A stretch of 64,000 bases of DNA from an uncultured Caldisericales bacterium (GCA_964639885.1 CAZXEH010000001.1:36893-100892), one strand, 5' to 3'; counted from the first letter of the stretch, positions 4,682 to 43,737 are shown. Notes: generated by a model not told the origin, from the sequence alone. Numbers and translations: made by a program.

Positions 4682-5074
4682 ATGTTTGGGCTTTCACACA
4701 TCGGAATTGCAGTTCCAAATCTCGAGGAAGCAAAAAAGGCTTGGCTCGATATGGGCTTTGTGCTCGACCATGAAACCGAAGTACCGGAGCAGAAGGTGAA
4801 AGTTGCAAAGCTCAAATGGCACGAAATGGTCATCGAGCTGCTTGAGCCGATCTCCGAAGACTCACCGATAAAGGGTTTCCTGGACAAGCGTGGCCCTGGA
4901 ATCCACCACATCTCAATTGAGGTTTCAGACGTTTCGTCGATGATTGCCGACCTTTTATCAAAAAATATCGCAATGATTGACAAGGTTGCACGCATTGGCG
5001 CTGCCGGAAAACCAATTGCTTTTGTCCACCCGAAGTCGACAGGCGGCGTCCTGCTTGAACTTGAACAGGAGTAG
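4682..5074 (+). CDS. mce: methylmalonyl-CoA epimerase (VOC/glyoxalase fold)
   Basis: 130-aa VOC protein with the Mce-like pattern (HIGIAV...IELLEP...GPGIHHISIEV...HPKSTGGVLLELEQ). Lies immediately after the MCM subunit. Confidence 0.75.
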   Translation: MFGLSHIGIAVPNLEEAKKAWLDMGFVLDHETEVPEQKVKVAKLKWHEMVIELLEPISEDSPIKGFLDKRGPGIHHISIEVSDVSSMIADLLSKNIAMIDKVARIGAAGKPIAFVHPKSTGGVLLELEQE

Positions 5075-5839: not shown

Positions 5840-5860
5840 CAACAGCCTGTTGAGGCAAAC

Positions 5861-6568: not shown

Positions 6569-6570
6569 AT

Positions 6571-7491
6571 TCAGGGTTTCATCGGCAACACAAGCTGGTT
6601 GATGCCCAATCCTTCGCAGGTCATTGACCCAGAGCCATCAGGTTCCAAAACTGTCCTCTTCTTTATAAACCCATGCTTCAGGTAAGGATGTTGTGAGCCT
6701 GTTGCGGGAACGTGCATCTCTGTGCCGACATCATTGATGGTTGCAAAAACTTCGATGCGCTCCACTCTCATTTTCCTGGCAAATTCTCTTGTATACTTCA
6801 AAAGCTCGGTTGCCACGCCACGGTTTCTGAATTTCGGGTAGACAAACAGGTCAATGACTTGTAGAACCTTCATTTCAGGCAGTTCATCGACGAATCTGCA
6901 GCCGATCCTCCAGGCGATTGGTTTTGGAATGTGGGTGATGAAGCCGGCAACGTCAGAGTTGATGAAGGCTATACACATCATCCTGCCATAGCTGAGCGTC
7001 ATGTCCCTCATGAAATGGGTTGTCTCCTGCGACCCGAGATCGCCGAACCGGCAATCAAGACATGTTCCAGGCGACGGTAAACCCTGTCCTGAAATGTCCT
7101 GATCGGTGACTTCCCTAACCATGATTGTCGGATCTTCACGATTGGCGTTGAGCCTTGGATGGACGAAACAGTCAGGGATGTTTGGTTCAGAATGTTTCGT
7201 CGCCCCACGATTTTCAATCTCGACAGAAAGTGAATCCCATGACTTGTGTGACCCGATGAATTCGCCGTCTACGAATAAAAGTGGCCTTGCCCCCTGAATA
7301 TCCGACCAACGACCTTTTGTTCTTATCTCTTTGATCTTTTCTCCAACCGGCCTTGGAATGATTGAGTACATGGCGTCCCTGATGTCGGCAAGATTCCACG
7401 GTTTGAGCGTCAATCCATACACTTCCTCGGCTTGGTGGGCGATCCATCCGCTTGAGCAGTAGGGTGAGAAAATCCAGTCAAGAACCATCAT
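6571..7491 (-). CDS. fusion protein: N-terminal glutaredoxin-like domain + GNAT N-acetyltransferase domain
   Basis: N-terminus has IFSPYCSSGW (CPYC-like site with Ser in first position) ... RPLLFVDGEFIGSHKSWDSL (glutaredoxin C-terminal motif). C-terminal half has a GNAT core (LFVYPKFRNRGVATELLKYTREFARK). Confidence 0.55.
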   Translation of the reverse strand: MMVLDWIFSPYCSSGWIAHQAEEVYGLTLKPWNLADIRDAMYSIIPRPVGEKIKEIRTKGRWSDIQGARPLLFVDGEFIGSHKSWDSLSVEIENRGATKHSEPNIPDCFVHPRLNANREDPTIMVREVTDQDISGQGLPSPGTCLDCRFGDLGSQETTHFMRDMTLSYGRMMCIAFINSDVAGFITHIPKPIAWRIGCRFVDELPEMKVLQVIDLFVYPKFRNRGVATELLKYTREFARKMRVERIEVFATINDVGTEMHVPATGSQHPYLKHGFIKKRTVLEPDGSGSMTCEGLGINQLVLPMKP

Positions 7492-7496
7492 GCCTC

Positions 7497-8471
7497 CTAG
7501 TATCCAAATCTTTTGTCCACAACGTTTATGAGCGGTTTGCCAGCCTCAAGATTTTTGATGTTGGATGAGACGATTTCAGCAAAGCACGGCCAAAAATCTG
7601 CTCCAGAACCAGCAGCATGAGGTGTCATGATGATCTCTTTCATCTGCCTCAAAGGTGAATCCTCCGGCAATGGTTCTGTTTCAAAAACATCCAGTCCAGC
7701 CGATGCGATTTTACCGGATTTGATAGCCGAAATGAGAGATTCCGTGCCGATGATGTTGCCTCTCGAGATGTTGACAAGAATTGCTCCATCCTTGATGTGG
7801 CCAATCATTTCGTCATCCAGAAGGTGTGAGGTTTCAGCGGTATCGGGGAGCGCAACGGCAATTATGTCAGATTTTGAGAGCAGATCCTGCAGTTCATCCA
7901 TTCCGAAAACCTGATCAACAAACTCAGTTGATTTGGGATTCCTTCTCAGACCCAAAGTGTTCATGCCAAACCCGAGTTTGCCAATTTTTGCAATTCTGGA
8001 GCCGATTTCGCCTAAACCAAGAATGCCGAATGTTTTGCCCTGGATTGTCATAGGTTGTTGGCCACTTTCGATAGCTTTCAGTCCCCACCAGCCCTCCTTG
8101 TTGACTGAATCCATCAATGGCACAAGTTTTTTTGAGCATGCAAGGATCAGAGCAAAGGCGTGTTCAGCAATTGTTTGTGACCGGCAGCCTCTGGAGTTGC
8201 AAATGATGACATCAGATTCAATAATTTCAGGAAAAAGCCTGTGTTTTCCCATGCCATCAGTTGCGTAGATGATTGCCCTGAGATGTTTGAGTTTCCCGAA
8301 AACCTCAGACTTGATTGACCAGCAAACCCACAAATCAGCATCTGTGCAATCCTCACAGTCTGTTATCCTGACGATTTCATGTTCTGGATGTCTTGCTTTG
8401 AGCGCCTGATAAACATTTTCGGGAAGGCTGTAATATTTTGCGATGCCATCAAGGTCCAGTACGATCTTCAT
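7497..8471 (-). CDS. D-isomer-specific 2-hydroxyacid dehydrogenase family (PGDH-like), NAD-binding
   Basis: Rossmann GxGxxG (GILGLGEIGSRIA). Catalytic region ...ISRGNIIGTESL...GLDVFETEP...TPHAAG. Start taken at MKIVLDL, which has an AGGTGG RBS. Confidence 0.8.
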   Translation of the reverse strand: MKIVLDLDGIAKYYSLPENVYQALKARHPEHEIVRITDCEDCTDADLWVCWSIKSEVFGKLKHLRAIIYATDGMGKHRLFPEIIESDVIICNSRGCRSQTIAEHAFALILACSKKLVPLMDSVNKEGWWGLKAIESGQQPMTIQGKTFGILGLGEIGSRIAKIGKLGFGMNTLGLRRNPKSTEFVDQVFGMDELQDLLSKSDIIAVALPDTAETSHLLDDEMIGHIKDGAILVNISRGNIIGTESLISAIKSGKIASAGLDVFETEPLPEDSPLRQMKEIIMTPHAAGSGADFWPCFAEIVSSNIKNLEAGKPLINVVDKRFGY

Positions 8472-8541
8472 TGGCCACCTATCCATCTTTTAGTTACAGG
8501 ATAGCATATTTAACCAAAATGGCATACACGGAAAACCAGCG

Positions 8542-9261: not shown

Positions 9262-10655
9262 GCCTTGATGACCCTTTGTCCTTGCGGAGTGTCTTTGACG
9301 ATGTATCCGAGTTTGGCGATGTCATCACGAATCTTGTCTGACATTGCCCAATCCTTGTTTTTCCTCGCATTGGTGCGGTCATCCAGGAGCTTCTGGATTT
9401 CAGCCGGTACTTCAAGTTCTGAACCTTCCATGAAGGCGAACACAGAGTTGACCCTGTCGATTGCTGCGAGAATGGCTTCACGCCCAGCTGTGCCGATCTG
9501 ACCGTCGTCTATTGCCTTGTTGAGAGCTCTGGTTGCGTCAAACACTGCTGCAATGGCAACCGGTGTGTTAAGGTCGTCGTCCATTCCCTCATCGAACTGG
9601 GCAAACATCTTGTCCAGAACTTCTTTTGTGTCGAAAGAGTCTTTGCTATCTGGGATCGCCCTGACTCTCGAAACGAATTCGATGAGGCTTGCCCTTGCTT
9701 TTCCTGCAGCCCTAACGGCTTCATCTGTGTAGTTGAGGCTGGTTCTATAATGGTTTGTCACCACGAAGAAGCGGAACATTTCTGGCGTAACGCCTTTTTT
9801 GACCAGGTCTTCAAGGGTGTAGAAATTGCCAAGTGATTTGCTCATCTTGGCTCCGTCAACCATCAGGTGGTAGCTGTGCGCCCAGTAGTTGCAAAACGGC
9901 TTTCCTGTTGCGCCTTCAGACTGGGCGATCTCGTTTTGGTGGTGCGGGAAGATGTTGTCGATTCCGCCGGTGTGGATGTCGAGCGTTTCACCAAGAATCT
10001 CCATGGACATGGCAGAGCATTCGATATGCCAGCCTGGTCTGCCTTTTCCAAGTTCGGTTTCCCAGAACACAGTTCCGTCGTTTTCGTCCCATGCTTTCCA
10101 AAGGGCGAAATCCGAAACTGAATCTTTTTCGTATTCATCGGAAGCGTTTCTGCCCGATGCACCTGACATCAAGGAGGATGTGTCCAGATGGGCGAGTTTG
10201 CCGTAATCAGGAAATTTTGCAATCGAGTAGTAGATGCAGTTATCGGATGCCTTGTAGGCTACGCCTTTGCCAAGCAGTTTTTTTACCAAACCAACCATCT
10301 GAGGGATGTAGTAGGTCGCCCTTGGGTAGAAGTTTGCATCAGTTATGTGCAGGGCTTTTCTGTCGTTGTGGAACATTCCGATGAACGGCTCGGTGACTTC
10401 GGAGAGCGGAATCTTCTTCTCCCTGCTGGCGCGAATGGTCTTGTCGTCAATGTCTGTGATGTTCATGACTTGTGTGACGTCATAACCTTTGTATCGCAGA
10501 TACCTGACTAGAATGTCCTCGAAGAGGAAAGTTTTGAAGTTTCCGATATGGATTTTGTTGTAAACTGTTGGGCCGCACGTGTAGATTCCGATTTTGCCGG
10601 AATTTACGGGAACAACTTCCTCTTTTGTGCGGGTCATCGTGTTGAAAAGTCTCAT
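9258..10655 (-). CDS. cysS: cysteine--tRNA ligase
   Basis: Class I aaRS HIGH motif (CGPTVYNKIHIGN) and KMSKS motif (KMSKSLGN). 465 aa. Confidence 0.95.
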   Translation of the reverse strand: MRLFNTMTRTKEEVVPVNSGKIGIYTCGPTVYNKIHIGNFKTFLFEDILVRYLRYKGYDVTQVMNITDIDDKTIRASREKKIPLSEVTEPFIGMFHNDRKALHITDANFYPRATYYIPQMVGLVKKLLGKGVAYKASDNCIYYSIAKFPDYGKLAHLDTSSLMSGASGRNASDEYEKDSVSDFALWKAWDENDGTVFWETELGKGRPGWHIECSAMSMEILGETLDIHTGGIDNIFPHHQNEIAQSEGATGKPFCNYWAHSYHLMVDGAKMSKSLGNFYTLEDLVKKGVTPEMFRFFVVTNHYRTSLNYTDEAVRAAGKARASLIEFVSRVRAIPDSKDSFDTKEVLDKMFAQFDEGMDDDLNTPVAIAAVFDATRALNKAIDDGQIGTAGREAILAAIDRVNSVFAFMEGSELEVPAEIQKLLDDRTNARKNKDWAMSDKIRDDIAKLGYIVKDTPQGQRVIKA

Positions 10656-11593
10656 CTCTTTATTCTGCCTTCTGTTGCCATATATTCGTCAAGTCCAAGC
10701 CTGACCATGAGCTGGTCGCCTGGCGGGAAATGCTTTGTTATCACTTTTGACAGCTGGTCGAATGCAAGCGGTGTTCCAACCAGGCTGTTGACGTAGTCAA
10801 TGATGTTCCACAGCAGCAGCTTCAGTGAGGAGACAACTTCCTCCTTGAGCAGCCCCTTGGTCATGAGCCCCGAGAACTTGAGATCATCGTCGAGTCTCAG
10901 TTCGTTCATGAACTTGTGCTTCTTCCCGATTTCCACGGAGAATTTGTCGATGATTTTTCTGTAGTGGTTCTTTCCGAGGTTGCGTTCGCCAAGCTCAATG
11001 CCGACATCATCGAGGAAAGCCATCGTCCTGTCTATGTCCTCGGTGTCCTGTTTTTCAAGCATGGCGATGTCCATGCTCATGAACTTGAGGATTGCCTTTG
11101 AAGTTTTGAACCTGCCAAGTGTCGAGTTTTCAAATACCTTTGCCACAAGTCCGTGGGTCTTGATAAGGTTGAAAACTTCCCATTCCTCCATGTTGAACAC
11201 AATATGCTCGCGTTCGTCATCAGGAATTGGGACGATCTTAAGCATTGCGTCGTCTGGTGGAAGTCGGTCTCGAATGGAGTTCCATTCGTCCATGAGGTTG
11301 GACCAGTTGAGCAAGAGACTCTCGATCTTGTTGCTTATTGTCTGCTTTGGCGTCCTCATGTCCGGGATGAATCCCCAGGTGCCTGAGGTTATTGTCAGCA
11401 GGTCGTAGAAGGCAGTTTCTCCTTCAAGGTTCTTGGTTTCGGCATGAACGATTGCTCCCTGGCCAAAATAGATGCGTGAAGTGTCCTCACCGGTTTTGAT
11501 CTCCATGCAACCAGTTTTCTTGCTTATATTCATGGTTTGGAGTATCACGGCCAAGTCCAGGTTCTCTATTGTGCCAGTTATTGCGTACACCAA
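10652..11593 (-). CDS. DUF4388 domain-containing protein
   Basis: N-terminal DUF4388-like pattern (GTIENLDLAVILQTMNISKKTGCMEI...IYFGQGAIVHAE...GETAFYDLL). Paralogue at 28463..29539. Confidence 0.5.
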   Translation of the reverse strand: MVYAITGTIENLDLAVILQTMNISKKTGCMEIKTGEDTSRIYFGQGAIVHAETKNLEGETAFYDLLTITSGTWGFIPDMRTPKQTISNKIESLLLNWSNLMDEWNSIRDRLPPDDAMLKIVPIPDDEREHIVFNMEEWEVFNLIKTHGLVAKVFENSTLGRFKTSKAILKFMSMDIAMLEKQDTEDIDRTMAFLDDVGIELGERNLGKNHYRKIIDKFSVEIGKKHKFMNELRLDDDLKFSGLMTKGLLKEEVVSSLKLLLWNIIDYVNSLVGTPLAFDQLSKVITKHFPPGDQLMVRLGLDEYMATEGRIKR

Positions 11594-11804: not shown

Positions 11805-13049
11805 GTGGGTCTGATTGAGCTGCTCCTCGCACTGCTGATGGCTTTCACTTCAACGTCGAACGCCTTTTATGTCAAAAACACGACACCGGCAGAGCTTGAC
11901 GAGTTCAATACCCAAACGGTTCGAGCCTTTGCAATCCTCATAGACAACACGGCGGAAGGCCAGATAAGCATCATCAGACCAGGCAAGATCACTGAAATCG
12001 GTGTTGTAATAAGGCCTGCATTCCAGGCGGAACGGGCACCTGATTTGTTCTGGGCTTACCATTATTGTGGAGGTCAGAACGGTTCCAAAGGTGCTGTGGT
12101 TGGAACAGGTGTAAACACAATTGACATCAGGTGTGGCCCGAACAGATCATACGATCCCCAAAGGCCTAACAACTGGCTTGCATCCATCATTTCGATCATA
12201 CCGTTCACTGAAGAGGAAAACGCAACCCCAAACGACATCGTTGTAACCTGCCCGGGTGGTTCTGACATCTTCAACAAATGGTCACCGTTTGTTGGCAATC
12301 CAGTTTATGCGATGGATGGTGAGGAATGGGTTCCAATCGACAGCTACTTCACGTCGCCAACCAGAAATGCACCCAGGATGATCCTCATCGATGTAAGAAA
12401 ACCCAAGCTCTACCTGCCTTATATCGAGTTTGAAAACTGGATCAGGGGCGACACAATCAAAGGTGAAACAATGACCGATGATGGCGGAGTCTGGATTTTG
12501 AACCAGCAGGGCGAAAAAAAGAAGATAGCCAGAGTGCTTCAAAGGCTTGAGAGCACTGGACTTTTCACCGGTTCCGAGTATGCAGAAGTTGGACAGGTGA
12601 GGATAAACACCCCTGGATTGCTCGAGATTTCAACCAACCGCTGGAGAGGCAGGATTGAAGATCCCAATGATCGAGGCGGTGTGCAAATTCTTGCTGATAA
12701 CGATGCAAAATACCTTCACTACAACCTCGGCTATCAGTCGATAATCGGTGGCAAACCCTACATGATTATCGGCTCGCTTGACTCACAGCCATCCGATCTT
12801 GCAAATCCAGTTTACACAGATGACAATGGCCTCCTTGTCAAGCCAACAATGGGCTCACCTCCATTTTTCAATGGTTTCATCAGGCCTCATTACGAGATAG
12901 ACAACTTCGAGTCTTCGTTCAGGGTTTTCATCTCGGAGGATTTTGGCAGAACATGGCGTGCAATGCCTGAAATAACCGGAATCACACAACCTGGAGAAAT
13001 CAGCTCTGTCCACTATTGGACGAACATCAGGCTCATGATGGGCAGATAG
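11805..13049 (+). CDS. hypothetical secreted protein
   Basis: GTG start and a signal-peptide-like N-terminus (LLLALLMAFTSTSNA). 414 aa. No recognised family. Confidence 0.45.
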   Translation: MGLIELLLALLMAFTSTSNAFYVKNTTPAELDEFNTQTVRAFAILIDNTAEGQISIIRPGKITEIGVVIRPAFQAERAPDLFWAYHYCGGQNGSKGAVVGTGVNTIDIRCGPNRSYDPQRPNNWLASIISIIPFTEEENATPNDIVVTCPGGSDIFNKWSPFVGNPVYAMDGEEWVPIDSYFTSPTRNAPRMILIDVRKPKLYLPYIEFENWIRGDTIKGETMTDDGGVWILNQQGEKKKIARVLQRLESTGLFTGSEYAEVGQVRINTPGLLEISTNRWRGRIEDPNDRGGVQILADNDAKYLHYNLGYQSIIGGKPYMIIGSLDSQPSDLANPVYTDDNGLLVKPTMGSPPFFNGFIRPHYEIDNFESSFRVFISEDFGRTWRAMPEITGITQPGEISSVHYWTNIRLMMGR

Positions 13050-13120: not shown

Positions 13121-13864
13121 GTGAAAATAAACTGTGTTTTGTTTCCGCCGGCAACTTTGGACATCAGCGAGCATTATGCTGTTGTGGTCGATGTTTTAAG
13201 AGCAACCTCCAACATCCTCTGCTTTTTTGAACGCGGTGCAGCTCTTGTGAGACCGATCAAAGACATTGATGAAGCCAGAGATTACAAGCTCCATTACCCT
13301 AACTGTGTACTCGCCGGTGAACGTGATGGAAAGAAAATCGACGGATTCCAGCTGGGTAATTCGCCAACCGAGACCCTCAGCTCAAAAATAAAAGGCAAGG
13401 AAATTGTGCTTTCCACAACTAACGGAACATCTGCTCTCATTGAAGCAGCAAAAGCTCACAAGGCTTTTGTGAGTTCACTCCTCAACCTCACCAAAACTGC
13501 TGAAACAATCGGCAAAATGATGCGAGAGACAAGGCGTGACCTGACAATAATCTGTTCCGGCAAACTTGGGCAGGTTTCCCTTGAAGACCTTTACTGCGCT
13601 GGTGCAATTATTCAAAAGGCTGTGAGCATGGGCGGCCTCAGGGGTTTTGAAATGGATGACGGCGCAAAAGTGGCAAAGATGGTGCATGGCGGTTTTGGCA
13701 ACGGAATGGATGCCATGCTCGCCTCATCCCACGGTCAGTACCTTTCATCGCTCACCCTTACCGGCGACATTGCCCTGTGCGCTAAAACCGACCTAATACC
13801 TTACCTTCCCGAAATCAGAAATGACAAAGGAATTCATATCGTCTGTGAAACCAAGGAGGATTGA
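13121..13864 (+). CDS. comB: 2-phosphosulfolactate phosphatase family protein (ComB-like)
   Basis: ComB family signature near the N-terminus (YAVVVDVLRATSNI). 247 aa. GTG start. Confidence 0.65.
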   Translation: MKINCVLFPPATLDISEHYAVVVDVLRATSNILCFFERGAALVRPIKDIDEARDYKLHYPNCVLAGERDGKKIDGFQLGNSPTETLSSKIKGKEIVLSTTNGTSALIEAAKAHKAFVSSLLNLTKTAETIGKMMRETRRDLTIICSGKLGQVSLEDLYCAGAIIQKAVSMGGLRGFEMDDGAKVAKMVHGGFGNGMDAMLASSHGQYLSSLTLTGDIALCAKTDLIPYLPEIRNDKGIHIVCETKED

Positions 13865-15324
13865 TGGTTGTTGATGAATCTAAGATAAGGCAGGCTTACG
13901 AAAAGCTTGCGCCGATCCTGGGGAAACGCGTGTCAATCGACATCACCCACAGGATGAGCTACAGCAGGGACTGGAGCCCAAGGCACGACTACGACAATGA
14001 CATTCCTGACATGATCGCTGTCCCGAAAACCACCGAAGAATGCGCTGAAATCATCAAGGTCGCCTACGACCTGGAGATTCCGGTTTGCACCTTTGCCGGT
14101 GGAACCGGCATGGGTGGCGGTGTTAACGCCTGGAAGGGCGGAATCATGATCGACAGCAAGGGCATGGATCAGATTCTCGAATTCGACGAGAAGAACCTCA
14201 CTGTCCGTGTCCAGGCCGGCATCACCATCTGGCACCTCAATGAATTCCTCAAAAATCATGGCCTTTGGCTCGCCCACCAGCCTGAAAGCAAGCAGGCCTC
14301 TACAGTTGGTGCAGCCATTGGTTGTGACAACGATTCAACGTTTGGTATGAAGTTTGGAAAGATCCTCGAATACCTTACGTCAATCAAGGTTGTCACCGGA
14401 ACCGGCGAGATAGTGGATTTTGGTCACCGCAAGGCCAACATGTCTTCATCTGGCTACAAGATTATGCATTTGTTTGTAAACTCTGAAGCTACACTTGGCG
14501 TGGTCACGGAAGCAACCCTCAGGGTGTCATACCTTCCAAAAGCGCGCGAGGTCATGGGCTTCCTGGTCAAGTCAATCGGCGAGTGCTGCTACACATTTGA
14601 AAAGATGGTTGCTGAAGGCATCCAGCTTGAGTCGCTCCACATAAATGACAGACAGAGACTCCATTTCTACACCCACTCATACAGAACAAAATACAACCGT
14701 GAACCGGAAGTGCCGGATTGGACTGATGCAATAGCTTTTGTCTCAGTTGCAGGTGACCCAGACATCGTCGAGTTCATGGCAAAAAAAGTGCGTGAAAAGA
14801 TGGCTCCAATTGGTGTCGAGGTAAAAGAGAAAGAAATCGTTACCGGTTACTGGGCGTCCAAGCATACGCTCGATTTCGAGCCTTTCAAGCAGAAGTGGCC
14901 TGATTCGCAGCGTGACAGAAAGTTCGGCGCTGCCGACGTTGGTGTTCCTATCGGAAATGTTCCGGCAATCCACGACAAGTTTGTTGAATACTCGCAGAAA
15001 TACGATCAGAAGATACTTGGTATGACCGTCTACAATGAAGTTGCCGGCAGAATTTCTCCGTCAATTTCGTTTGCCATCTTTGTCGACGACAAGGATCCCA
15101 AAAATGTTGACAATTTCTTCAAGTTTGTTGAGGAGATGAGCAGATCCGCAATCGAGCTTGAAGGCACGATGAGCACCTACATTGGCGACGGCGACAGGCT
15201 TGGCGGATTCAACAAGCTTGAACACGGTGCATCCTTCGAATGGATGAAGAAGATCAAAAAAATGTTTGACCCAAAGAACATCATGAACCCTGGCAAAAAG
15301 TTTGAAAGCAGGTGGATCAGATGA
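13864..15324 (+). CDS. FAD-linked oxidase (GlcD / D-lactate dehydrogenase-like)
   Basis: FAD_binding_4 PCMH region (VPKTTEECAEIIKVAYDLEIPV..FAGGTGMGGG...TVRVQAGITIWHLNEF) and FAD-oxidase C-terminal region. Start overlaps the comB stop. Confidence 0.85.
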   Translation: MVVDESKIRQAYEKLAPILGKRVSIDITHRMSYSRDWSPRHDYDNDIPDMIAVPKTTEECAEIIKVAYDLEIPVCTFAGGTGMGGGVNAWKGGIMIDSKGMDQILEFDEKNLTVRVQAGITIWHLNEFLKNHGLWLAHQPESKQASTVGAAIGCDNDSTFGMKFGKILEYLTSIKVVTGTGEIVDFGHRKANMSSSGYKIMHLFVNSEATLGVVTEATLRVSYLPKAREVMGFLVKSIGECCYTFEKMVAEGIQLESLHINDRQRLHFYTHSYRTKYNREPEVPDWTDAIAFVSVAGDPDIVEFMAKKVREKMAPIGVEVKEKEIVTGYWASKHTLDFEPFKQKWPDSQRDRKFGAADVGVPIGNVPAIHDKFVEYSQKYDQKILGMTVYNEVAGRISPSISFAIFVDDKDPKNVDNFFKFVEEMSRSAIELEGTMSTYIGDGDRLGGFNKLEHGASFEWMKKIKKMFDPKNIMNPGKKFESRWIR

Positions 15325-16403
15325 AACACCTCGAGCAGTTCAAAGACGACATCTACACCTGTGTGCGAACCCGTTGCGGTTTCTGCATTCAGGAATGCCC
15401 GACATACCGCGATGGTCTGATCGAAAGCTACGCCTCAAGAGGCAAGATGCTCCAGGCAAAAGGTCTCCTCGAAGGCGAGATGAAACTGACCCAGGAACTT
15501 GCCGATTCAGTATTTTTCTGCACCATGTGTGGTTACTGCGAAGCCAAATGCGCCCTCCAGAACCTTGAAATCTTCAAGGCTCTCAGGGAAGAGCTTGTTG
15601 AAGCCGGATACACCAAGAAAGAAAACGACTCTGTCGCCAAAAACATCATCGAGAAGGGCGACCCACTCGGTTCCGGCAAACAATTCAAGGTTGACGGCGA
15701 TGTTCAGCTTTATCTCGGCTGCGCCTATAGGGACAGAGCCACCGATGCCGAAAGGATCGTGAAGGTTCTTGGCAAACTCGGCATCAAAGTCAGGATCACC
15801 GAAGAAGTCTGCTGTGCAAACGCTCTTTACAACACCGGCTACAAAAAGGAATATGAGCAGGCCAAGGCAAAATTCATGGAAGTCTACAAACCCTACCTTA
15901 ATGACACCATCATCACGGTTTGCCCGAGCTGCACCCTCACACTCAAGGAATATTACGGACTGCCAAAGGTTGTTCACGCTTCAGAGCTGATCCTCCAGAA
16001 GCTCCCAACCATGAAAATCAAGAAATCAACAGCAAAAGCCACCTACCACGACCCATGCCATCTTGGCAGGGGACTGAAGAACTTCGACGCACCTAGAGAA
16101 ATAATCAGGATGCTTGGCTATGATCTCGCCGAGATGAGGCTGAACAACAATTTCTCGCAGTGTTGCGGTGGCGGTGGCGGTCTCCAGGCTCACGCCGGTG
16201 ACACAGTAAAAGAAACAGCAAAACGCCGTGTCAGGGAGGCCATTGACACAGGCGCCGAATACATTTCAACCATCTGTCCGACGTGCGAGTCAACACTTTT
16301 CAGAGCAACAATGGCTGTCTCCCGTGAAGAAAAGGAAAAGGGCACAGGAAAGCGCATCAAGAGCAAAGACATCTGGCAGATGCTGGAGGAGGCTTTGGAA
16401 TGA
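15321..16403 (+). CDS. (Fe-S)-binding protein with two CCG cysteine-rich domains (GlcF / heterodisulfide-reductase-D-like)
   Basis: 4Fe-4S cysteine clusters (CVRTRCGFCIQECP; CTMCGYCEAKC) followed by two CCG-type motifs (VCCANALYNTGY; CCGGGGG). Translationally coupled to the upstream oxidase. Confidence 0.8.
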   Translation: MKHLEQFKDDIYTCVRTRCGFCIQECPTYRDGLIESYASRGKMLQAKGLLEGEMKLTQELADSVFFCTMCGYCEAKCALQNLEIFKALREELVEAGYTKKENDSVAKNIIEKGDPLGSGKQFKVDGDVQLYLGCAYRDRATDAERIVKVLGKLGIKVRITEEVCCANALYNTGYKKEYEQAKAKFMEVYKPYLNDTIITVCPSCTLTLKEYYGLPKVVHASELILQKLPTMKIKKSTAKATYHDPCHLGRGLKNFDAPREIIRMLGYDLAEMRLNNNFSQCCGGGGGLQAHAGDTVKETAKRRVREAIDTGAEYISTICPTCESTLFRATMAVSREEKEKGTGKRIKSKDIWQMLEEALE

Positions 16404-17092
16404 AGAAAATATTGATCGGACTTGCAGCTGTTGTCATTCTCCTTGCCGGTTGCGGTGCAGCTGACGATAAAAAACCTGACGCAAAAAAACCCGATGATGG
16501 CAAACCGGTTGTGACTGAAAGACCGGAAAAGATTGACGGCTACACACTTTTCACCACACCGGAAGGAACAAGCTTTTATGTTCCAGATGGCTGGAAGAGT
16601 GAAGTCTTCAAGTTCCCGCCAGTCACTGACCCAAACATTGTAATGGCCGGTGCAGAGATCGTTTTTTACCCACCCGACACTGATATAACTGACATCAAAG
16701 ACAAGCTTGCAAACGGCGATTTCAGGTATCAGGAGTTGAATCTTCAGGGCAAAACACTGCTAGTCTACATGCAGGGCGTAACAAACCGCTTCATGCCCGG
16801 TGCATGCAAGGATTATCCACAGGTCACATTCTACGAGAACGGGGACTCTAACTATAAAAACTACTACATCCCATATTCGAAGGATGAGAACACCGAAGCC
16901 TGCTCAGCCACACTGAAACCGCCAGCCCTCAAATACAACGGCGAAGCAAGTGTTTATATCGCATACGGCCAGCGCATGCCAACATCGACACAGCCACTGG
17001 CCCAGTTCTGTGGAATTGCGGTTACATCGTCATCCCTTTCGGTAAAAGACAGGGAGATGTTTGAAAAAATCAGCGCTTCATTCAGATTTTGA
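16400..17092 (+). CDS. hypothetical lipoprotein
   Basis: Lipobox (LLAGCGAADDKKPD). GGAGG RBS. Stop/start overlaps on both sides. Confidence 0.5.
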   Translation: MKKILIGLAAVVILLAGCGAADDKKPDAKKPDDGKPVVTERPEKIDGYTLFTTPEGTSFYVPDGWKSEVFKFPPVTDPNIVMAGAEIVFYPPDTDITDIKDKLANGDFRYQELNLQGKTLLVYMQGVTNRFMPGACKDYPQVTFYENGDSNYKNYYIPYSKDENTEACSATLKPPALKYNGEASVYIAYGQRMPTSTQPLAQFCGIAVTSSSLSVKDREMFEKISASFRF

Positions 17093-17103
17093 CAAAGGAG
17101 ACA

Positions 17104-18585
17104 ATGATGCATCTTAAGAATTACATTAACGGAGTTTGGAAAGACTCAGTCACAGGCAGAACATTTGATGATTTCGACCCGGCAAACGGTGAACTTCTGT
17201 GCACGGTCACAAAATCGAGCGCAGACGATGTAAATGAGGCTGTTGCAGCAGCAAAGGCAGCATTTGCTAAATGGAGAGCGCTTCCCGCACCGGCACGTGG
17301 CGAGATACTGATGAAAGCTGCACACATTCTCGAGGGCAGAAAAGAAGAGATTGCAAGGGAACTGACCTGCGAAATGGGCAAAGTCATTGCCGAGGCAAGG
17401 GGCGATGTTCAGGAAGCAATCGACATGTTCTACCTCATCGGTGGTGAAGGCCGCAGGATGAAGGGTGAAACTGTCCCGTCAGAGATGATGAACAAGCTGA
17501 TCTATGTTGTCCGTGACCCAATCGGCGTTTGTGGACTGATCACACCGTGGAACTTCCCTGTAGCCATTCCGTCATGGAAAATAGCTCCTGCGCTTGTCCT
17601 TGGAAATACCGTCGTGGTCAAGCCGGCAACCGACACACCGCGTTGCATGGTCAGGATGTTTGAAGCCCTAATCGATGCAGGACTCAAGGATTATCCAGGT
17701 GTAATCAACCTCGTTCTCGGTGGTGGCTCAGAAGTCGGCGAAACCATCATCAACCATAAGGACATCAGGATGATCAGCTTCACCGGTTCAACCGATGTTG
17801 GTACAAGGATCGCAACCGTTTGTGGCCAGATGCTCAAGAGATCGTCGCTTGAAATGGGCGGGAAGAACGGCATGATCGTCATGGACGACGCTGACCTTGA
17901 ACTCGCTGTCGAAGCTGCAATCTGGTCGGCGTTTGGAACCACAGGACAGCGTTGCACCGCTTGCTCAAGAATCATCATTCACAGGTCAGTAAAAGAGAAG
18001 TTTGAAAAGATGCTCCTCGACCGTGCGCTCAAGCTCAAGCTTGGACATGGACTTTCATCAGATGTCGGCCCGGTCATCAACAAAACCGCAAGGGAATCAA
18101 TCCACAAATACGTTGAAATCGGCAAGGCAGAAGGCGCAAAGATGCTTTGTGGCGGCGAGTTTGCAACCGATGGCGATCTTTCAAAAGGGTCATTCTACAA
18201 GCCAACAATCTTCACCGATGTCAAGAGAAACATGAGAATTGCACAGGAAGAAATCTTTGGGCCTGTCGTTGCACTCATTCCGTGCGACAGCCTTGAAGAG
18301 GCAATCGATATCAACAACGACACCGCTTTTGGCCTCTCATCCTCAGTCATCACTGCCGACGTGAACAACGCAATGATCGCAGCACGCGACATCACAACCG
18401 GACTGGTCTATGTCAACGCCGGAACGATCGGCGCAGAAGTCAGCTCGCCGTTTGGCGGAACACGCGGAACAGGCAACGGACATCGCGAAGGCGGCGTGCA
18501 GGTTCTCGACGCTTTCATGGAGTGGAAGGTTGTAACTGTCGACTTCTCCGGCCATGTGCAGAAGGCCCAGATAGACAACAAGTGA
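17104..18585 (+). CDS. NAD(P)+-dependent aldehyde dehydrogenase
   Basis: ALDH family, including the catalytic Cys region ([17 protein letters not shown]) and Glu region (LEMGGKNG). AAGGAG RBS before ATG 17104. Confidence 0.9.
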
Positions 18586-18602
18586 TTTGAAATGAAGTGA
18601 CG

Positions 18603-18632
18603 ATGGCGCCTCACAAAGAGGCGCCATTTTTT
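18603..18632. terminator. bidirectional Rho-independent terminator between convergent genes
   Basis: GGCGCCTC-acaaa-GAGGCGCC hairpin followed by a T-run (ATTTTTTAT). An A-run lies on the opposite side. Confidence 0.6.
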
Positions 18633-19602
18633 ATGGGTAGATTAGTTGAGTTATTGTCACTGATCTAGTTGCAGAATCGTACGAAACCCAACATTCAAAT
18701 ATTTCACCAATGAACCTGAATGGCACCATCAGTGAACCGTTGATTATTACTGGAGGTGTGCCGTTTATTGTTACTTCCTTGCCATTAAAAGTTCCTTTTG
18801 GATTGCCAACATAAATTACCAATAAATTACCTCCCAATTCGACTGTAATCATTTTTGATTCAGCGCTATATGTTACGTTGCCACCAAGGAAAGTATTACA
18901 GAAAAATCTGAGAGGCACCATTGTTGATGCTCTGTAGATTGTTAGTTCAACCGGCATTGTGAATTCAACTCCGTCGATGGTCGCTATTTTATTGTAGGTT
19001 TGCATTTTGCACGTTTTTTCGTGGATGTTTGTGATATTTAGGATGAATGTTGAGATATTACCATATTTGTCGGTAATTTTTATTATGTGGTCAGTTTTCG
19101 AGGGTGACTTTTCAATAGTGAGTTTGACCGTGAACATTATACCATCTTGTTCAGCTTTATTGCCATCTCCTTCGATGATGCATTCTGGTTCTGTGAATCC
19201 CACCTGTTGATATTCGTTGACGTCTTTTGTCTTAATATTAATTTGATTACCTGTCATTAGTTTACTTGAAATGCAAAAATGTACTTTTGGTGCTGTCGTC
19301 CTCATCTGCACGAGGATGCCTTTTGTCGTGGACTGGCCATCTTTTGTGGCTTTGAAGTGGAAGACGTTGTCACCCTCCTTAATTTCGAGGTCAATTTTAA
19401 AAACGCCGTCATCGCCAATTGTGGCGACTTTCTTGCCCCTCATGCTGACCTCGGTTCCTGGCGCAGCTTTACCGATGAGCGTAAAAGGCGATTTGTTCGT
19501 GTAATGAACAAGACCGATCTCAAATTCAACATTCTCTGCTTTTGCCCCAATCACAGGCATTATCAACACCGCAATAATCATTGTCAGAATCATTTTTTTC
19601 AT
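18631..19602 (-). CDS. secreted protein with C-terminal 'copper amine oxidase N-terminal-like' stalk domain
   Basis: Signal peptide (MKKMILTMIIAVLIMPVIGAKA). C-terminal module ...STMVPLRFF...GG.V.Y...VPFRFIGE...W..D...R.V.I, as seen in Cu_amine_oxidN1-type stalk domains. Confidence 0.55.
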   Translation of the reverse strand: MKKMILTMIIAVLIMPVIGAKAENVEFEIGLVHYTNKSPFTLIGKAAPGTEVSMRGKKVATIGDDGVFKIDLEIKEGDNVFHFKATKDGQSTTKGILVQMRTTAPKVHFCISSKLMTGNQINIKTKDVNEYQQVGFTEPECIIEGDGNKAEQDGIMFTVKLTIEKSPSKTDHIIKITDKYGNISTFILNITNIHEKTCKMQTYNKIATIDGVEFTMPVELTIYRASTMVPLRFFCNTFLGGNVTYSAESKMITVELGGNLLVIYVGNPKGTFNGKEVTINGTPPVIINGSLMVPFRFIGEIFECWVSYDSATRSVTITQLIYP

Positions 19603-19612
19603 TTTTGCCTCC

Positions 19613-20589
19613 TTATGGTTGGATGTCTTTTGTTAGCATTATCAACTCGGATACTTTGTCATACTCATAGCTAAACCCGAACAATTCAAAGAAAGATTTG
19701 ACTGGAACGTGAGTTGTGCCATTTTCGATGAATGGCGCTTCATCAATGTCGACAGTGGATCCATCGAAATTGGCAATCTTTTCGTTGGCTCTGCACAATA
19801 ATTTGTTGTCGCCAGCGGTTATGGCGGTGATTCTTGCGCTTGCATCCCACGAAAGCTGACCATTGATTACTTCGCAGAAAAGTCTGATGTTGAGCATGAA
19901 TGTTCCGTTTCTTGTCTTTATTTTATTTATTGAAATTTGTCTGTTGTCAATGGTCATGTTTCCTGAATTAATACCGATGTAGACTCTTTTTGTGTGAATG
20001 TTGTTTATGCCAAGGTTTACGTTGGTTTTGTTACCATATCTATCAACAACATTTATCATGTGAGAATTTTTTGATGGAGCCTCTTTTAATTCTATCTGCA
20101 GCCTGATCCTGTTTCCGTCCACTTCCTGCGTTGCGTTGTCAACGATTATTTTGCACCCAGGGTCAGTGAAGCAAAGAATATCGATTTTTTTGGCATCTTT
20201 GGCATCAAGGTTTATTTTCTGATCAGTGAATGTCTTGCCTCCGATGAACAATGTCACAACCGGTGGTGTCGAATCCATTTCAACATAAATGTCTTTTGTG
20301 ACCTTGGCTCCGTCTTCTGGGAGACCACCTGAAAAAAGTTGCCACCTTCGTTTACATCGAGATAAATCTTGAATGAACCATTATCATCTGCGTATGTGAA
20401 TAGGTTTTGCCCTTCAATTCCAACCTGACTCCCCGGTTCAGCTTTCCCTTCCAGAATAAATGGAGATTTATTGACATACCAAACCTGTTTTACCTCCAGC
20501 GCCAGAGATTGCGCCATACCGCTTGAGAGCGGAACAAACGTTGCAGCAATCAAACCCATCACCACCAATAACATGCCCAGCCGTTTCAT
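19613..20589 (-). pseudogene. frameshifted paralogue of 18631..19602 (secreted stalk-domain protein), disrupted at an A/T homopolymer
   Basis: Two consecutive ORFs (20254..20589 and 19613..20278) align collinearly to the upstream paralogue (VKQVWYVNKSPFILEGKAEPGSQV vs IGLVHYTNKSPFTLIGKAAPGTEV). The reading frame changes at the A6/T6 run near 20335–20340. Adding one base there restores ...EGGNFFSGGLPEDGAKVTKDIYVEMDSTPPVV. Confidence 0.6.
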
Positions 20590-21731: not shown

Positions 21732-22745
21732 TCATTCGGAAGCTGTTTCCGGGAAGTAGCAAGTGACTGTCTTTGTTGCTGCTTCGTAGTCGACCCTTGC
21801 ACCAAGGAGTTCTGAGATCATCCTTACAGGAACGACTGTACTACCGTTGTAGTTGGTGGCCGCTGTCTTGACTGTGACCTTGTCTTTGAACATCTTGCCG
21901 TCGCCGGTCTTGAGCTCGAGAGTGACTGTTGTTGAGTTGAGCGGGAGGCTCATCTTGAAGTAGACGTTCTTGAACTCGAAGGTGTATGAGGCTGTTTTAG
22001 TTGCTGCGTCCCAGCCAACCTTGCAGTAGTCCTTGCCAATGACCTTTTCGCCCATGTCGCGCATCGGGAGATAGGTTGAGCCCTTGATTACAACCGGAGG
22101 AACCTTGAGGGTGTCGGTTGAGTCTGTCATCGGGTATCTCTTTGCCTTGTCCTTGTTTCTGATGTCCCAGGTAAGGCACTTTGTGAGCTTGAGTTCCTTG
22201 TTGTCTATCTGCATCTTTGCAACTGTGAACGGGATGAGCATGCAGCCAAAGTACATTGAGTCGATGGTTCCCTTGTCGCCAACCGGCCAGACATCGACAC
22301 GGCCTGTGCCCATCTGTCCGAACTTGCCGACTGAAGCCACACCGTGCGGAGAGAAGAGGGCGGTCATTGCTTCTTCAAATCCCGGTTCCTTTTCCTTGCC
22401 TGTTGTTCCGGTGACACCTGCGTTGTAGCATGCATCAGAGAAGCAGTATTCGACAATTTCCCAGTCGCCTGACTTTGTGTCTGCGTCATAAGGTGTTGTT
22501 GGGCCGAGGTTGTTCATCATGCCCTGGAACTTCTGTGTTCTGTCTGTGACGTTTTTCATCGAGTAGTGGAAGTGGTTGTTTGACTGGTACGGATAAACTG
22601 TCGGGTTTGGCGCAAACAGTGCCGAGAACTTGAACAGGAATGTCCTGTTGAGGTGCTTGAAAAAGCCCGGGCCTGCGTTGGCAGAGGTGCTGAAACCTGC
22701 AACTGCGATTGCCGCAATGGCAACGATTGCGATAATTTTCTTCAT
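21732..22745 (-). CDS. secreted protein with C-terminal copper-amine-oxidase-N-terminal-like stalk domain
   Basis: Signal peptide (MKKIIAIVAIAAIAVAGFSTSANA). C-terminal module ...STYLPMRDMGEKV...VGWDAATKT...STVVPVRMISELLGARVDYEAATKTVT. Confidence 0.55.
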   Translation of the reverse strand: MKKIIAIVAIAAIAVAGFSTSANAGPGFFKHLNRTFLFKFSALFAPNPTVYPYQSNNHFHYSMKNVTDRTQKFQGMMNNLGPTTPYDADTKSGDWEIVEYCFSDACYNAGVTGTTGKEKEPGFEEAMTALFSPHGVASVGKFGQMGTGRVDVWPVGDKGTIDSMYFGCMLIPFTVAKMQIDNKELKLTKCLTWDIRNKDKAKRYPMTDSTDTLKVPPVVIKGSTYLPMRDMGEKVIGKDYCKVGWDAATKTASYTFEFKNVYFKMSLPLNSTTVTLELKTGDGKMFKDKVTVKTAATNYNGSTVVPVRMISELLGARVDYEAATKTVTCYFPETASE

Positions 22746-24246: not shown

Positions 24247-25941
24247 TTAAAGTTTGGATGCAAGACTGTTATCTATGCCTAATTTACAAACAATATCTTT
24301 TAAATATTTTTCAAGATGAATTTTATCATCATCAGAAAAATGCCAAGATTCGGTTTCTATTTCATCTATACGATTATAAACATTAAACTCATCCTTTTTT
24401 ACTAAACCAAAAATAGAGCAAAAATCACCATACAAAATGGAAACAGTTTCTTCGAATCGATTTTCAAGATAGTCTTTCAAAGATTTTATTTCTCGTAAGG
24501 TATCCGTATCACCTTTGTCGTCATCTAATGCGATGATGTAAGGAATTCCAAATTTATCTAATATTTTTGCATGATTCAATAATTTAGAATTCCCCCTTGA
24601 ATTATAGATACTGATATCATTACTATTTAGATTGTGACCTTGTTTCATCAATAACCAAGGTATGGCAATTCTTTCATTGTAGCCTTCGACTAATAATACT
24701 TTATCGGCAAAGAAAAATTCACGTAGTTCAGGTTCAAGCCTTAATGATGTAAAGAATTCGAAGAAATATTTATCAGAACCCAACACGTCAATTCCCTTTG
24801 ATTTTAGATAGTTTATTGAAAAATCGTATAACCCACTTCCATTATTGCTAACTTTTGTTAACCCGTTTATTTTTGATATGATTCTGAGTGAATGAATGTT
24901 CATAGGATCGATGAAATAAGATGAATGGGTGGAGAGGACTATTTTAAAATTTTTATTGCCCACGATCTCAAATAACTTATCTGAAACAGCTTTTTGTTGA
25001 TGTGGATGCATAAATATTTCTGGCTCTTCAATTAATAATATAAGATTGCTTTTGTTATCCTGTATCTTTTTTGAAGCCAATTGAGTAAATAACAACATTA
25101 TCAGCAATCTTTGTAAACCATGACCTAAATTTGTCCACTCTACAGATTCGATCCATTTATCACTTATTAATAATTGCCTGTCAGTAACCAGTTTTTTTGC
25201 ATCAAAATCAGTTGGAAGATACTCAATATTATTGATATCAGGTATAATTTTTTTCATTTCAGATTTAAGAGAGTTAATTATTTCCAAGGCATCTGTTTCT
25301 GGGATTTCTCGAATTTTCTTCAGCGCTTCGCAAATAATGACATTAATTTTTTCAGTATATGTTTTGCTGAATTTGTCATTTAAAAGTTTTCCGAGTATTG
25401 TTGTATTTGCAGTATTTGTTGCTTCTTTTAATATTGGAATTGCAGATAAATATAGAATATCAAATGGAGGTTTTTTATCGACCCAATCAAACTTACCATT
25501 AACTTCCGCTGTCGACTGGTAGATTTCTTTTTCACCTCCAGAATCAACCCAAATGTTTACCGTTGATCGTTTACTATTATTTCCAATATACTTACTAACA
25601 TCATTTTTAAGTGTTAATTTCTCTGATTCTCCTAAATTGGAAAAAGATTCTAATTCTAATAATTTTGCTTTGTAATCATCCTCTAATCTTTTATTGCATA
25701 TATCTGTTATTTCAAAAATACCTTTGTTAAATGCTTTATTTAGTGCAGTCATTATATTGCTTTTACCAGAATTATTTTTCCCTATCAATATCGTTTGATT
25801 ACTAAGGAATATTTCTAATTTATCTATTGTTCTAAAATTGTTTATTTCAATATGAATGTTATCCTCGGGATTGTCCATACAGCCTCCACAATGTTTATAA
25901 ACAAAATCCCCGAAGATTTCAATACCCTCGGGGATTGGCAA
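24247..25941 (-). CDS. OLD-family nuclease: N-terminal ABC-type ATPase + C-terminal TOPRIM domain (Gabija GajA / class-1 OLD-like)
   Basis: Walker A (ILIGKNNSGKSNIMTAL). Walker B/D-loop (LILLIEEPEIFMHPHQQ). C-terminal Toprim with a conserved Glu (LLVEGYNERIAIPWLL) and DxD (IIALDDDKGDTD). The gene is conspicuously AT-rich (about 25–30 %GC by eye) against GC-rich flanks. An alternative start is at the Met at 25878. Confidence 0.75.
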   Translation of the reverse strand: MPIPEGIEIFGDFVYKHCGGCMDNPEDNIHIEINNFRTIDKLEIFLSNQTILIGKNNSGKSNIMTALNKAFNKGIFEITDICNKRLEDDYKAKLLELESFSNLGESEKLTLKNDVSKYIGNNSKRSTVNIWVDSGGEKEIYQSTAEVNGKFDWVDKKPPFDILYLSAIPILKEATNTANTTILGKLLNDKFSKTYTEKINVIICEALKKIREIPETDALEIINSLKSEMKKIIPDINNIEYLPTDFDAKKLVTDRQLLISDKWIESVEWTNLGHGLQRLLIMLLFTQLASKKIQDNKSNLILLIEEPEIFMHPHQQKAVSDKLFEIVGNKNFKIVLSTHSSYFIDPMNIHSLRIISKINGLTKVSNNGSGLYDFSINYLKSKGIDVLGSDKYFFEFFTSLRLEPELREFFFADKVLLVEGYNERIAIPWLLMKQGHNLNSNDISIYNSRGNSKLLNHAKILDKFGIPYIIALDDDKGDTDTLREIKSLKDYLENRFEETVSILYGDFCSIFGLVKKDEFNVYNRIDEIETESWHFSDDDKIHLEKYLKDIVCKLGIDNSLASKL

Positions 25942-31035: not shown

Positions 31036-31039
31036 TTAA

Positions 31040-32602: not shown

Positions 32603-32604
32603 TT

Positions 32605-43661: not shown

Positions 43662-43707
43662 AGTTTCATTCTATATTTCTGTTTAAAAATGTAAATATAA
43701 CCCCCTC

Positions 43708-43737
43708 GATGTATGTTGCGAGGGGGTTATAAACGAA
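43708..43737 (-). terminator. Rho-independent terminator downstream of hbd
   Basis: AACCCCCTCG-atgtatgttg-CGAGGGGGTT, a 10-bp stem, followed on the − strand by a T-rich tract. Confidence 0.55.

Follow-up and report, generated by a model that had tools for sequence, protein, structure and literature searches.

A Caldisericota-specific five-gene operon around a two-subunit flavin/iron-sulfur dehydrogenase

Introduction

Gene pairs of a GlcD-type flavoprotein and an HdrD- or GlcF-type iron-sulfur (Fe-S) protein are routinely read in metagenome studies as evidence of lactate or glycolate utilisation, including in reconstructions of Asgard and Bathyarchaeia metabolism. The closest described system is the two-subunit FAD/Fe-S D-lactate dehydrogenase (D-LDH) Dld-II A/B of Desulfovibrio vulgaris (DVU3027-DVU3028), which is genetically proven and carries a GEHG-type motif with an essential His (PMC4481167). 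In the structurally characterised PdG-D-LDH, R323 is the carboxylate-binding Arg, H371, H378 and E415 are "strictly conserved" metal ligands, and H416 abstracts the proton (PMC12724367). A second line of comparison is archaeal ComB, the 2-phosphosulfolactate phosphatase (EC 3.1.3.71) of coenzyme M (CoM) biosynthesis, where in the canonical route ComA acts before it and the NAD-dependent ComC after it (PMC9457059). Here we describe an operon that brings together relatives of both systems, found in 64,000 nucleotides of DNA from an uncultured Caldisericales bacterium (GCA_964639885.1 CAZXEH010000001.1:36893-100892; hereafter the window, to whose full length coordinates refer unless another locus is named). 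It encodes a ComB homologue, a flavoprotein, an Fe-S subunit with CCG motifs, a lipoprotein and an aldehyde dehydrogenase (ALDH). An earlier sequence-only reading of this stretch had proposed a sulfolactate or organosulfonate pathway, with a 2-hydroxyacid module as the fallback. Our analysis identifies a Caldisericota-specific five-gene operon around a two-subunit flavin/iron-sulfur dehydrogenase, and not a sulfonate module.

Results and discussion

A five-gene operon conserved in Caldisericota

The five genes lie head to tail on the + strand. The gene for the ComB-family phosphatase (13121-13864; 247 aa; PF04029, 209 bits over 13-225/226) is followed by those for the FAD-dependent dehydrogenase (13864-15324; FAD_binding_4, 103 bits, and FAD-oxidase_C, 62 bits), the HdrD-like Fe-S subunit (15321-16403; Fer4_8 and two CCG domains, the CCG match reaching 102 bits in two stretches), a 230-aa lipoprotein (16400-17092; lipobox LAGC at residues 15-18, no Pfam family) and the ALDH (17104-18585; PF00171 Aldedh, 563 bits). 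Three of the open reading frames (ORFs) open further upstream, at TTG 13861, GTG 15312 and TTG 17089. The probable starts of the flavoprotein and the Fe-S subunit are ATG 13864 (486 aa, in agreement with P0121) and ATG 15321 (360 aa), and that of the ALDH is most likely ATG 17104/17107, 11-14 nt past the lipoprotein stop with an AAGGAG site upstream (~493 aa from ATG 17104).

Judged from their sequence, the genes form one transcription unit. The stop codon of the ComB gene and the ATG of the flavoprotein gene overlap as TGATG, with AAGGAGG upstream, the next two junctions are ATGA each, and a Shine-Dalgarno-like site is found at every junction. An intrinsic terminator (18602-18628, +; 11-bp stem with 7 GC pairs, 5-nt loop and T-run) lies 17 nt past the ALDH stop and was the sole convincing element of the terminator and promoter scan. 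No terminator was found between the ComB gene and the gene upstream of it, which encodes a secreted 414-aa protein; the promoter scan stayed at shuffle level (8 found vs 7.2 expected), and we claim no promoter. An Rfam scan of the whole window returned one tRNA only, with no riboswitch or leader upstream of the operon. ORF and domain scans bear out the five genes of the sequence-only reading, with its family-level calls, and the overlaps, ribosome-binding sites and single strong terminator bear out its translational coupling within a single unit. The terminator might also serve the convergent gene at 18631-19602 (-).

We compared the block across homologous contig and genome regions (loci, labelled L001 and so on). 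Among 80 species-representative genome loci, 10 from Caldisericota and 70 from other phyla, all 10 Caldisericota loci have the five genes in the same order, as do the metagenomic contigs L001 and L005. Protein identity is 94-99% to the nearest public locus (L013), from an uncultured Caldisericales metagenome-assembled genome (MAG). Across the nine other Caldisericota species, identity to the window protein is 74-92% for the flavoprotein, 73-92% for the ALDH, 62-91% for the Fe-S subunit, 39-77% for ComB and 31-57% for the lipoprotein. This conservation is beyond chance. In L005 the 7-kb upstream segment, from PEMT through the 414-aa protein, is missing and the block abuts MCM/glyoxalase/o253 genes, and the 3' flanks of the block differ between Caldisericota loci; we therefore regard the five genes as the conserved unit and the 414-aa protein as a facultative neighbour. 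Upstream synteny is otherwise high, with CysS, SpoU and DUF4388 flanking synteny common to 9/10 Caldisericota loci (CysS and DUF4388 upstream), so that conservation of the block is only moderate evidence of a shared function.

The least conserved member is the lipoprotein, which has only 8 homologues among 5.8 billion clusters. Its AF2 model (pLDDT 70.6) gives weak matches (TM 0.35-0.5) to MTC28, LpqN, DcrB, Mog1 and PsbP-type envelope proteins and offers no clue to metabolism. The lipoprotein is restricted to this lineage and always inside the Caldisericota operon, and it probably has a place in the envelope and no enzymatic role.

The dehydrogenase pair and ComB homologues in other phyla

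Relatives of the flavoprotein number in the hundreds in Anaerolineae/Chloroflexota, at 57-61% identity. At 46-58% identity, the genome scan found them in Thermodesulfobacteriota/Syntrophaceae, Thermoproteota, MAGs labelled as Nitrososphaerota, Thermoplasmata, Methanomassiliicoccales and the Asgard lineages Frey-, Jord-, Hel-, Heimdall-, Borr-, Baldr-, Njord- and Sifarchaeia. In 73/80 loci the gene immediately after that of the flavoprotein encodes a homologue of the Fe-S subunit; of the seven exceptions, two are cut off by the end of the contig. ComB, the lipoprotein and an ALDH of the window type stand beside the pair in Caldisericota loci only and are absent from the 70 other loci, bar L057, which has one distant (34%) MMSDH-type ALDH. 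This distribution shows the flavoprotein and Fe-S subunit to be an autonomous, cross-domain gene pair, with ComB and ALDH recruited in Caldisericota only. As a guide to ComB function in general, the gene context is of limited use, since the linkage of ComB to an oxidase is confined to one phylum and the pair stands without ComB in 70 loci.

Outside Caldisericota, no neighbour apart from DAO is common to more than 12 loci, and the neighbours mostly reflect lineage synteny (MoaA, UvrD-type helicase, NifS-like and MoxR/DUF58-like genes). A DAO/SoxB-like flavoprotein gene is found within 8 kb of the pair in 14/70 loci, namely 8 from Chloroflexota, usually together with OCD/mu-crystallin, and all 6 Thermodesulfobacteriota/Syntrophia loci that carry the pair. 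One co-directional array (L051 4527-12386) runs ProC, DAO, OCD, flavoprotein, Fe-S subunit and a tungsten-type aldehyde:ferredoxin oxidoreductase (AOR), and permuted versions occur in L046 (5559-12526) and L044 (6598-14101). The array in L057 (7749-15201) has on one strand the flavoprotein, Fe-S subunit, DAO, a class-III aminotransferase, a 118-aa ORF and the MMSDH-type ALDH, four genes downstream of the pair. The L049 array is truncated and the L062 array has no ALDH. The genes around the pair in Thermodesulfobacteriota belong to imino-acid, omega-amino-acid and semialdehyde metabolism. Aldehyde oxidisers of two unrelated families, ALDH and AOR, follow the pair in Caldisericota and Thermodesulfobacteriota. 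Overall, the neighbours of the pair in other phyla favour amino-acid-derived semialdehyde metabolism over sulfonates or glycolate. A PAS histidine kinase gene is also present downstream of the Syntrophaceae/Thermodesulfobacteriota arrays.

Five distant ComB homologues were inspected in their own genomic contexts, and three of them lie downstream of efp-accB-accC (accB and accC encoding biotin carboxyl carrier and biotin carboxylase). The ComB gene directly follows accC in L009 (7001-7777) and L095/96 (6001-6768 and 5377-6144, respectively), and is three genes beyond it in L093/94 (6001-6711 and 3999-4709). Of the other two homologues, one adjoins a DUF401 membrane protein gene and one lies between gcvT and ftsK, and none of the five adjoins a gene for ComA, an FAD oxidase or a CCG protein. 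The recurrent efp-accB-accC arrangement suggests that bacterial ComB homologues, of which a literature search found no characterisation, serve a housekeeping function unconnected with CoM. In L009 and L095/96 the ComB start and the accC stop overlap by 4 nt.

With these contexts in hand, we tentatively favour a CoM-independent route that leads from a phosphoester through an alcohol or hydroxy acid and a carbonyl compound to an acid, in consecutive steps on one small organic acid or alcohol. Gene order and the context in other phyla suggest that the ComB-type phosphatase would free the hydroxyl of a small phosphorylated organic acid or alcohol. Gene order and the recurrence of AOR or ALDH further suggest that oxidation of this hydroxyl by the flavoenzyme would give a carbonyl compound, which is probably an aldehyde or semialdehyde and which the ALDH would oxidise to an acid. 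Several observations weigh against such a route. ComB is linked to the pair in one phylum only, where the flanks are syntenic too, and part of the conservation could be inherited gene order. Most Chloroflexota and all archaeal loci have no aldehyde-oxidising gene near the pair. To our knowledge, the characterised substrates of ComB are all 2-O-phospho-2-hydroxy acids, whose products, glycolate excepted, are secondary alcohols that give ketones and not aldehydes. Finally, with the gene for an extracytoplasmic lipoprotein embedded among its enzyme genes, the operon encodes more than a single cytoplasmic pathway.

The operon may instead be one of convenience, in which the housekeeping phosphatase ComB, the dehydrogenase pair, a lipoprotein of the envelope and a general ALDH share a transcript in Caldisericota and no pathway. 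Such an arrangement is consistent with the pair standing apart from both ComB and ALDH in the 70 loci of other phyla, with the efp-accB-accC and other unrelated contexts of distant ComB homologues, with a non-enzymatic-looking lipoprotein embedded in the operon, and with the CysS, SpoU and DUF4388 flanks being kept in 9/10 Caldisericota loci. However, the stop/start overlaps at three junctions, the persistence of the block despite loss of the 5' flank in L005 and variable 3' flanks, and the presence of an aldehyde oxidiser after the pair in a second phylum all argue for a functional unit, and we consider mere co-transcription doubtful.

A flavoprotein family with a non-canonical active site

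All components of the operon belong to known superfamilies, and as an ordinary-looking catabolic or salvage unit it would not surprise a specialist. Its non-routine element is the flavoprotein family, which is both a lead for enzymology and a caution for annotation. The FAD_binding_4 and FAD-oxidase_C domains place the flavoprotein in the VAO/PCMH fold, in a D-2-hydroxyacid-dehydrogenase-like clade. Its matches to solved relatives lie mostly in the FAD-binding half, and in fold comparison D-LDHs, VAO/PCMH oxidases and ADPS match it at similar levels. Databases label family members as "glycolate oxidase", "FAD/FMN-containing dehydrogenase" or generic FAD-binding oxidoreductase, and a literature search found no paper characterising the family.

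We aligned 79 sequences from the genome loci, comprising 75 family members and, as an internal control, four canonical GlcD-like paralogues encoded in the flanks of four Asgard loci. The 75 family members have K334, Y391, S403, Y440 and I/M441, where the four paralogues have R, H, H, E and H; position 441 is I or M in 69/79 aligned sequences. Y391, S403 and Y440 thus stand in place of the His/His/Glu metal triad, in agreement with profile alignments to 8jdb and 9qgz, while K334 replaces the carboxylate-binding Arg and I441 replaces the catalytic His of the GEHG motif. The family profile aligns over its full length to mouse LDHD and Dictyostelium ADPS, with H..GDGN.H and GEHGIG of LDHD corresponding to YNE...SISF and STYIGDG of the family, and the SHHHGVG loop of ADPS also corresponding to STYIGDG. 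The family has invariant motifs of its own, namely RDWSPR, QPESK, DNDSTFG, QKWPDSQR, GMTVYNE, SISFA and STYIGDGDR.

Compared with described enzymes, the pair shares the two-subunit FAD/Fe-S architecture of Dld-II A/B (PMC4481167). Unlike DVU3027-28 and GlcD/GlcF, to which it is <25% identical, the flavoprotein has K/Y/S/Y/I in place of the Arg, His/His/Glu and catalytic His, and its operon has no GlcE and no lactate permease, pta or ack context. Equivalog scores are low as well (glcD TIGR00387, 192 vs 568; NF008408, 102 vs 897), and the cap domain FAD-oxidase_C reaches 62 bits. The labels "GlcD-like" and "GlcF-like" in the sequence-only reading hold at the superfamily level only. That reading had also named clustering of the pair with glycolate or D-lactate oxidases as a result that would speak against it, and no such clustering was found. 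The flavoprotein differs further from ADPS and VAO enzymes, to which it is 14-20% identical and which have no Fe-S partner. Identity as an ADPS was rejected, given that the HHH loop of SHHHGVG is absent (STYIGDG) and an Fe-S partner is present. By sequence, this is a separate, uncharacterised and well-conserved family, with a GlcD/D-LDH-plus-CCG design and a replaced active site.

Might the new site define a new chemistry? It is conceivable, if on balance rather unlikely, that the pair represents a new, metal-independent VAO/PCMH-CCG enzyme class, found widely among uncultured anaerobes, Asgard archaea among them. Its Lys/Tyr/Ser/Tyr site would make an aldehyde or semialdehyde from some alcohol or amine that arises in amino-acid-derived metabolism, and in Caldisericota it would be fed by ComB. 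If true, a ComB-fed pair would give a bacterial ComB homologue its first physiological role independent of CoM, and the Caldisericota operon and the recurrent efp-accB-accC arrangement provide two concrete contexts in which to study such homologues. The substrate of the pair, if found, would fill a conserved metabolic gap in several abundant uncultured anaerobic lineages.

The same residues bear on a classical 2-hydroxyacid route, in which ComB would clear 2-phosphoglycolate or 2-phospholactate, the pair would produce glyoxylate from glycolate or pyruvate from D-lactate, and oxidation of glycolaldehyde or lactaldehyde by the ALDH would supply the acid. The domain architecture of the pair is identical to that of D-LDH DVU3027-28 and GlcDF, 2-phospholactate and phosphoglycolate are recognised damage metabolites, and archaeal ComB reportedly also hydrolyses phosphoglycolate and 2-phospholactate in vitro. 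Nonetheless, the carboxylate Arg, metal triad and catalytic His are all replaced across the 75 family members, the glcD and GlcF scores (the latter 51 vs 333) and the cap-domain score are low, the cluster has no lactate or glycolate permease, and four Asgard loci encode a canonical GlcD-like paralogue alongside the pair, an arrangement suggestive of a different function for the pair. We therefore hold this route to be unlikely. The fallback 2-hydroxyacid module of the sequence-only reading is likewise weakened by a flavoprotein that has none of the Arg, His/His/Glu and catalytic His residues by which dehydrogenases of glycolate, D-lactate and D-2-hydroxyglutarate are defined (PMC12724367). More generally, because the family lacks, despite its annotation, the residues for binding and deprotonating a 2-hydroxy acid, inferences of lactate or glycolate use are unsafe for this flavoprotein family.

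One of the Asgard arrangements (L074 3165-10627; also in L066, L070 and L075, from Borr-, Sif- and Promethearchaeota) contains, in this order, a V4R/HTH regulator, the canonical GlcD-like protein, two ~275-aa proteins and the non-canonical pair. The ~275-aa proteins are two divergent copies with a Cys-rich C-terminus and have no Pfam match.

The iron-sulfur subunit

All 18 of the Cys residues are present in the Fe-S subunit and are conserved in 65-69 of 69 partners. They make up two CxxCxxCxxxC motifs and two complete C...CC...CxxC CCG motifs, and PF02754 matches the protein twice. It has no hydrophobic segment (maximum KD19 0.88). Its NCBIfam scores are all under the cut-offs, with TfrB best (157 vs 385), followed by GlpC (52 vs 278), GlcF (51 vs 333) and HdrB (41 vs 345), and the HdrC model also matches it under the cut-off. 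On these motifs and scores, "HdrD-like" fits the subunit better than "GlcF-like". Like HdrD and TfrB, it is predicted to carry two ferredoxin-type clusters and two complete CCG motifs in one soluble ~360-aa chain; unlike them, it scores far under the cut-offs and is partnered by a VAO-fold flavoprotein, not by HdrE or TfrA.

By homology, the substrate would be dehydrogenated at the FAD and electrons would pass through two ferredoxin-type [4Fe-4S] clusters and the CCG clusters to an acceptor, for which a quinone or membrane chain and a disulfide are the candidates. The organism has genes for cytochrome-c maturation, but many carriers of the family are fermenters or archaea. Should the CCG subunit reduce a low-molecular-weight disulfide as HdrD and TfrB do, the pair would be coupled to a thiol cofactor and not to a quinone. 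The top match to the thiol:fumarate reductase subunit TfrB (157 bits) and the additional HdrB and HdrC matches are compatible with this, as are the complete and invariant CCG motifs, the absence of a membrane anchor from the subunit, and the abundance of the family in Asgard, Thermoplasmata and fermentative Anaerolineae. On the other hand, the TfrB, HdrB and HdrC scores are far under their cut-offs, CCG proteins also serve the quinone-linked enzymes GlpC, GlcF and LutA, there are no genes for thiol-cofactor biosynthesis nearby, and the cytochrome-c maturation and polyprenyl synthase genes in the window are compatible with a membrane chain. Disulfide coupling is thus very unlikely in our estimation.

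The ComB homologue, the ALDH and the sulfonate proposal

The ComB homologue resembles archaeal ComB in its full-length PF04029 match, its size and its invariant residues. The stretch YAVVVDVLRATS is found at residues 19-30, and the protein keeps each of the 12 residues found to be invariant when 20 family sequences are aligned (D24, R27, S30, E67, S81, N101, G102, N122, C145, G147, D156 and D216). Because none of the invariant residues is lost, it is probably an active enzyme of the PF04029 fold. Unlike archaeal ComB, it falls under the TIGR00298 cut-off (113 vs 175), it has no ComA, ComC or ComDE partner in the window or related loci, and its host is a bacterium with no sign of CoM use. It is in fact under every NCBIfam equivalog cut-off, with NF002054 as the top model (165 vs 330), and its Protein Data Bank (PDB) relatives are the structural-genomics proteins 2yyv, 2z0j and 1vr0. 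An exhaustive HMMER search (E<=1e-3) returned 5113 clusters at 50% identity for the ComB family; a single cluster, at 48% identity, represents the clade of the window protein, the next is at 39%, and a continuum at 33-42% follows. The homologue sits in a small isolated clade of the PF04029 family. No ComB-oxidase fusions were present among the matches listed (ComB 144-287 aa; flavoprotein 483-514 aa).

The ALDH has the catalytic Glu255 (LEMGGKN) and Cys289 (GQRCTA) and is predicted to be an NAD(P)-dependent, non-acylating aldehyde dehydrogenase. Its top-scoring characterised subfamilies are the GucD-type alpha-ketoglutaric semialdehyde dehydrogenase (524 vs 770) and 2,5-dioxovalerate dehydrogenase (510 vs 750). 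Unlike in GucD-type systems, the protein is under both NCBIfam cut-offs and the cluster has no pentose, hexarate or hydroxyproline genes. Its best PDB match is the Thermus thermophilus ALDH 6fku (366 bits), and its similarity to PDB entries is spread almost evenly over many subfamilies, including betaine-aldehyde, ALDH1 and succinate-semialdehyde dehydrogenases. No sulfo-aldehyde dehydrogenase, sulfolactaldehyde dehydrogenase included, is found among its best 60 PDB matches, nor the sulfoacetaldehyde dehydrogenase SafD (NF047626) among its best 25 NCBIfam matches (all >=279 bits).

We searched for sulfonate families with a Pfam scan that covered each of the 61 window ORFs that are 100 aa or longer. 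None encodes ComA (PF02679), ComC, a ComDE/Xsc-type thiamine pyrophosphate (TPP) enzyme, SuyAB, TauE, a glycyl-radical sulfonate lyase or another sulfonate protein. No sulfonate gene lies beside the related loci, including Caldisericota loci L001-L006, L013-L021 and L054, no sulfite or sulfonate transporter is encoded in the 64-kb window or related loci, and no decarboxylase that could provide the ALDH with a sulfo-aldehyde is encoded in the cluster. Organosulfonate metabolism has no positive support in the window or related loci. The proposal of (R)-sulfolactate as the ComB product, of its oxidation to sulfopyruvate by the pair and of a sulfo-aldehyde as the ALDH substrate draws on the membership of ComB in PF04029 and the generic oxidation of 2-hydroxy acids by FAD/Fe-S dehydrogenases, and nothing more; with no ComA, ComC/ComDE/Xsc, SuyAB or transporter in the window or related loci, a ComB homologue under the archaeal equivalog cut-off, a flavoprotein without the hydroxy-acid catalytic residues, no sulfo-aldehyde dehydrogenase or SafD among those best ALDH matches, and an oxidation that the canonical pathway performs with NAD-dependent ComC (PMC9457059), it is extremely improbable.

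Neighbouring genes and other features of the window

The gene for the secreted 414-aa protein (11805-13049, +), which the sequence-only reading took to be divergent, is co-directional with the operon and lies 71 nt upstream of it; the divergent gene is that of DUF4388 (10652-11593, -). The 414-aa protein has a signal-like hydrophobic N-terminus and no Pfam or NCBIfam match; all 10 Caldisericota genome loci encode it (42-94% identity), and L005 lacks it. An Asp-box in its strict form (SEDFGRTW, aa 377) and a second, looser match (TDDGGVW, aa 225) hint at a BNR/beta-propeller fold; no Pfam model matches. Further upstream, 4.6 kb from the operon and on the opposite strand, a D-isomer-specific NAD-dependent 2-hydroxyacid dehydrogenase (7497-8486, -) is syntenic in most Caldisericota loci. 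As it is absent from L005 and L014, it is probably unrelated to the operon.

Copper amine oxidase N-terminal-like (Cu_amine_oxidN1) domains are found at the C-termini of four secreted proteins (18631-19602, 19613-20278 and 21732-22745, all -; 42034-42609, +). Genes of this type also flank the operon in other Caldisericota loci, and the proteins are probably lineage-typical cell-envelope proteins.

A cytochrome-c maturation cluster (45906-51939, +) encodes an ABC ATPase, CcmB, a CcmC-like protein, CcmE, CcmF and a 529-aa protein without a family, and its presence indicates that the organism makes c-type cytochromes and presumably respires. A polyprenyl synthase is also encoded in the window. 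An OLD-family, defence-like ATPase/nuclease with AAA_15 and OLD-like TOPRIM domains (24247-25941, -) lies in a low-GC patch (0.34 vs ~0.48), and its gene was probably horizontally acquired. A second low-GC patch (0.375) at 42001-44000 contains a 354-aa ORF (42597-43661, -) with no Pfam family.

At 30514-33246 (-), a BMC-domain protein (23.5 bits, slightly under the cut-off), a 520-aa protein of no family and a PduL-type phosphate propanoyltransferase adjoin a HIT-family gene, and may be a remnant or minimal microcompartment-associated acyl-phosphate module. Two large proteins complete the picture: a 1539-aa protein with DUF11 repeats (36331-40950, +) and a 1209-aa Ser/Thr protein kinase with AAA_16 and TPR domains (57291-60920, +).

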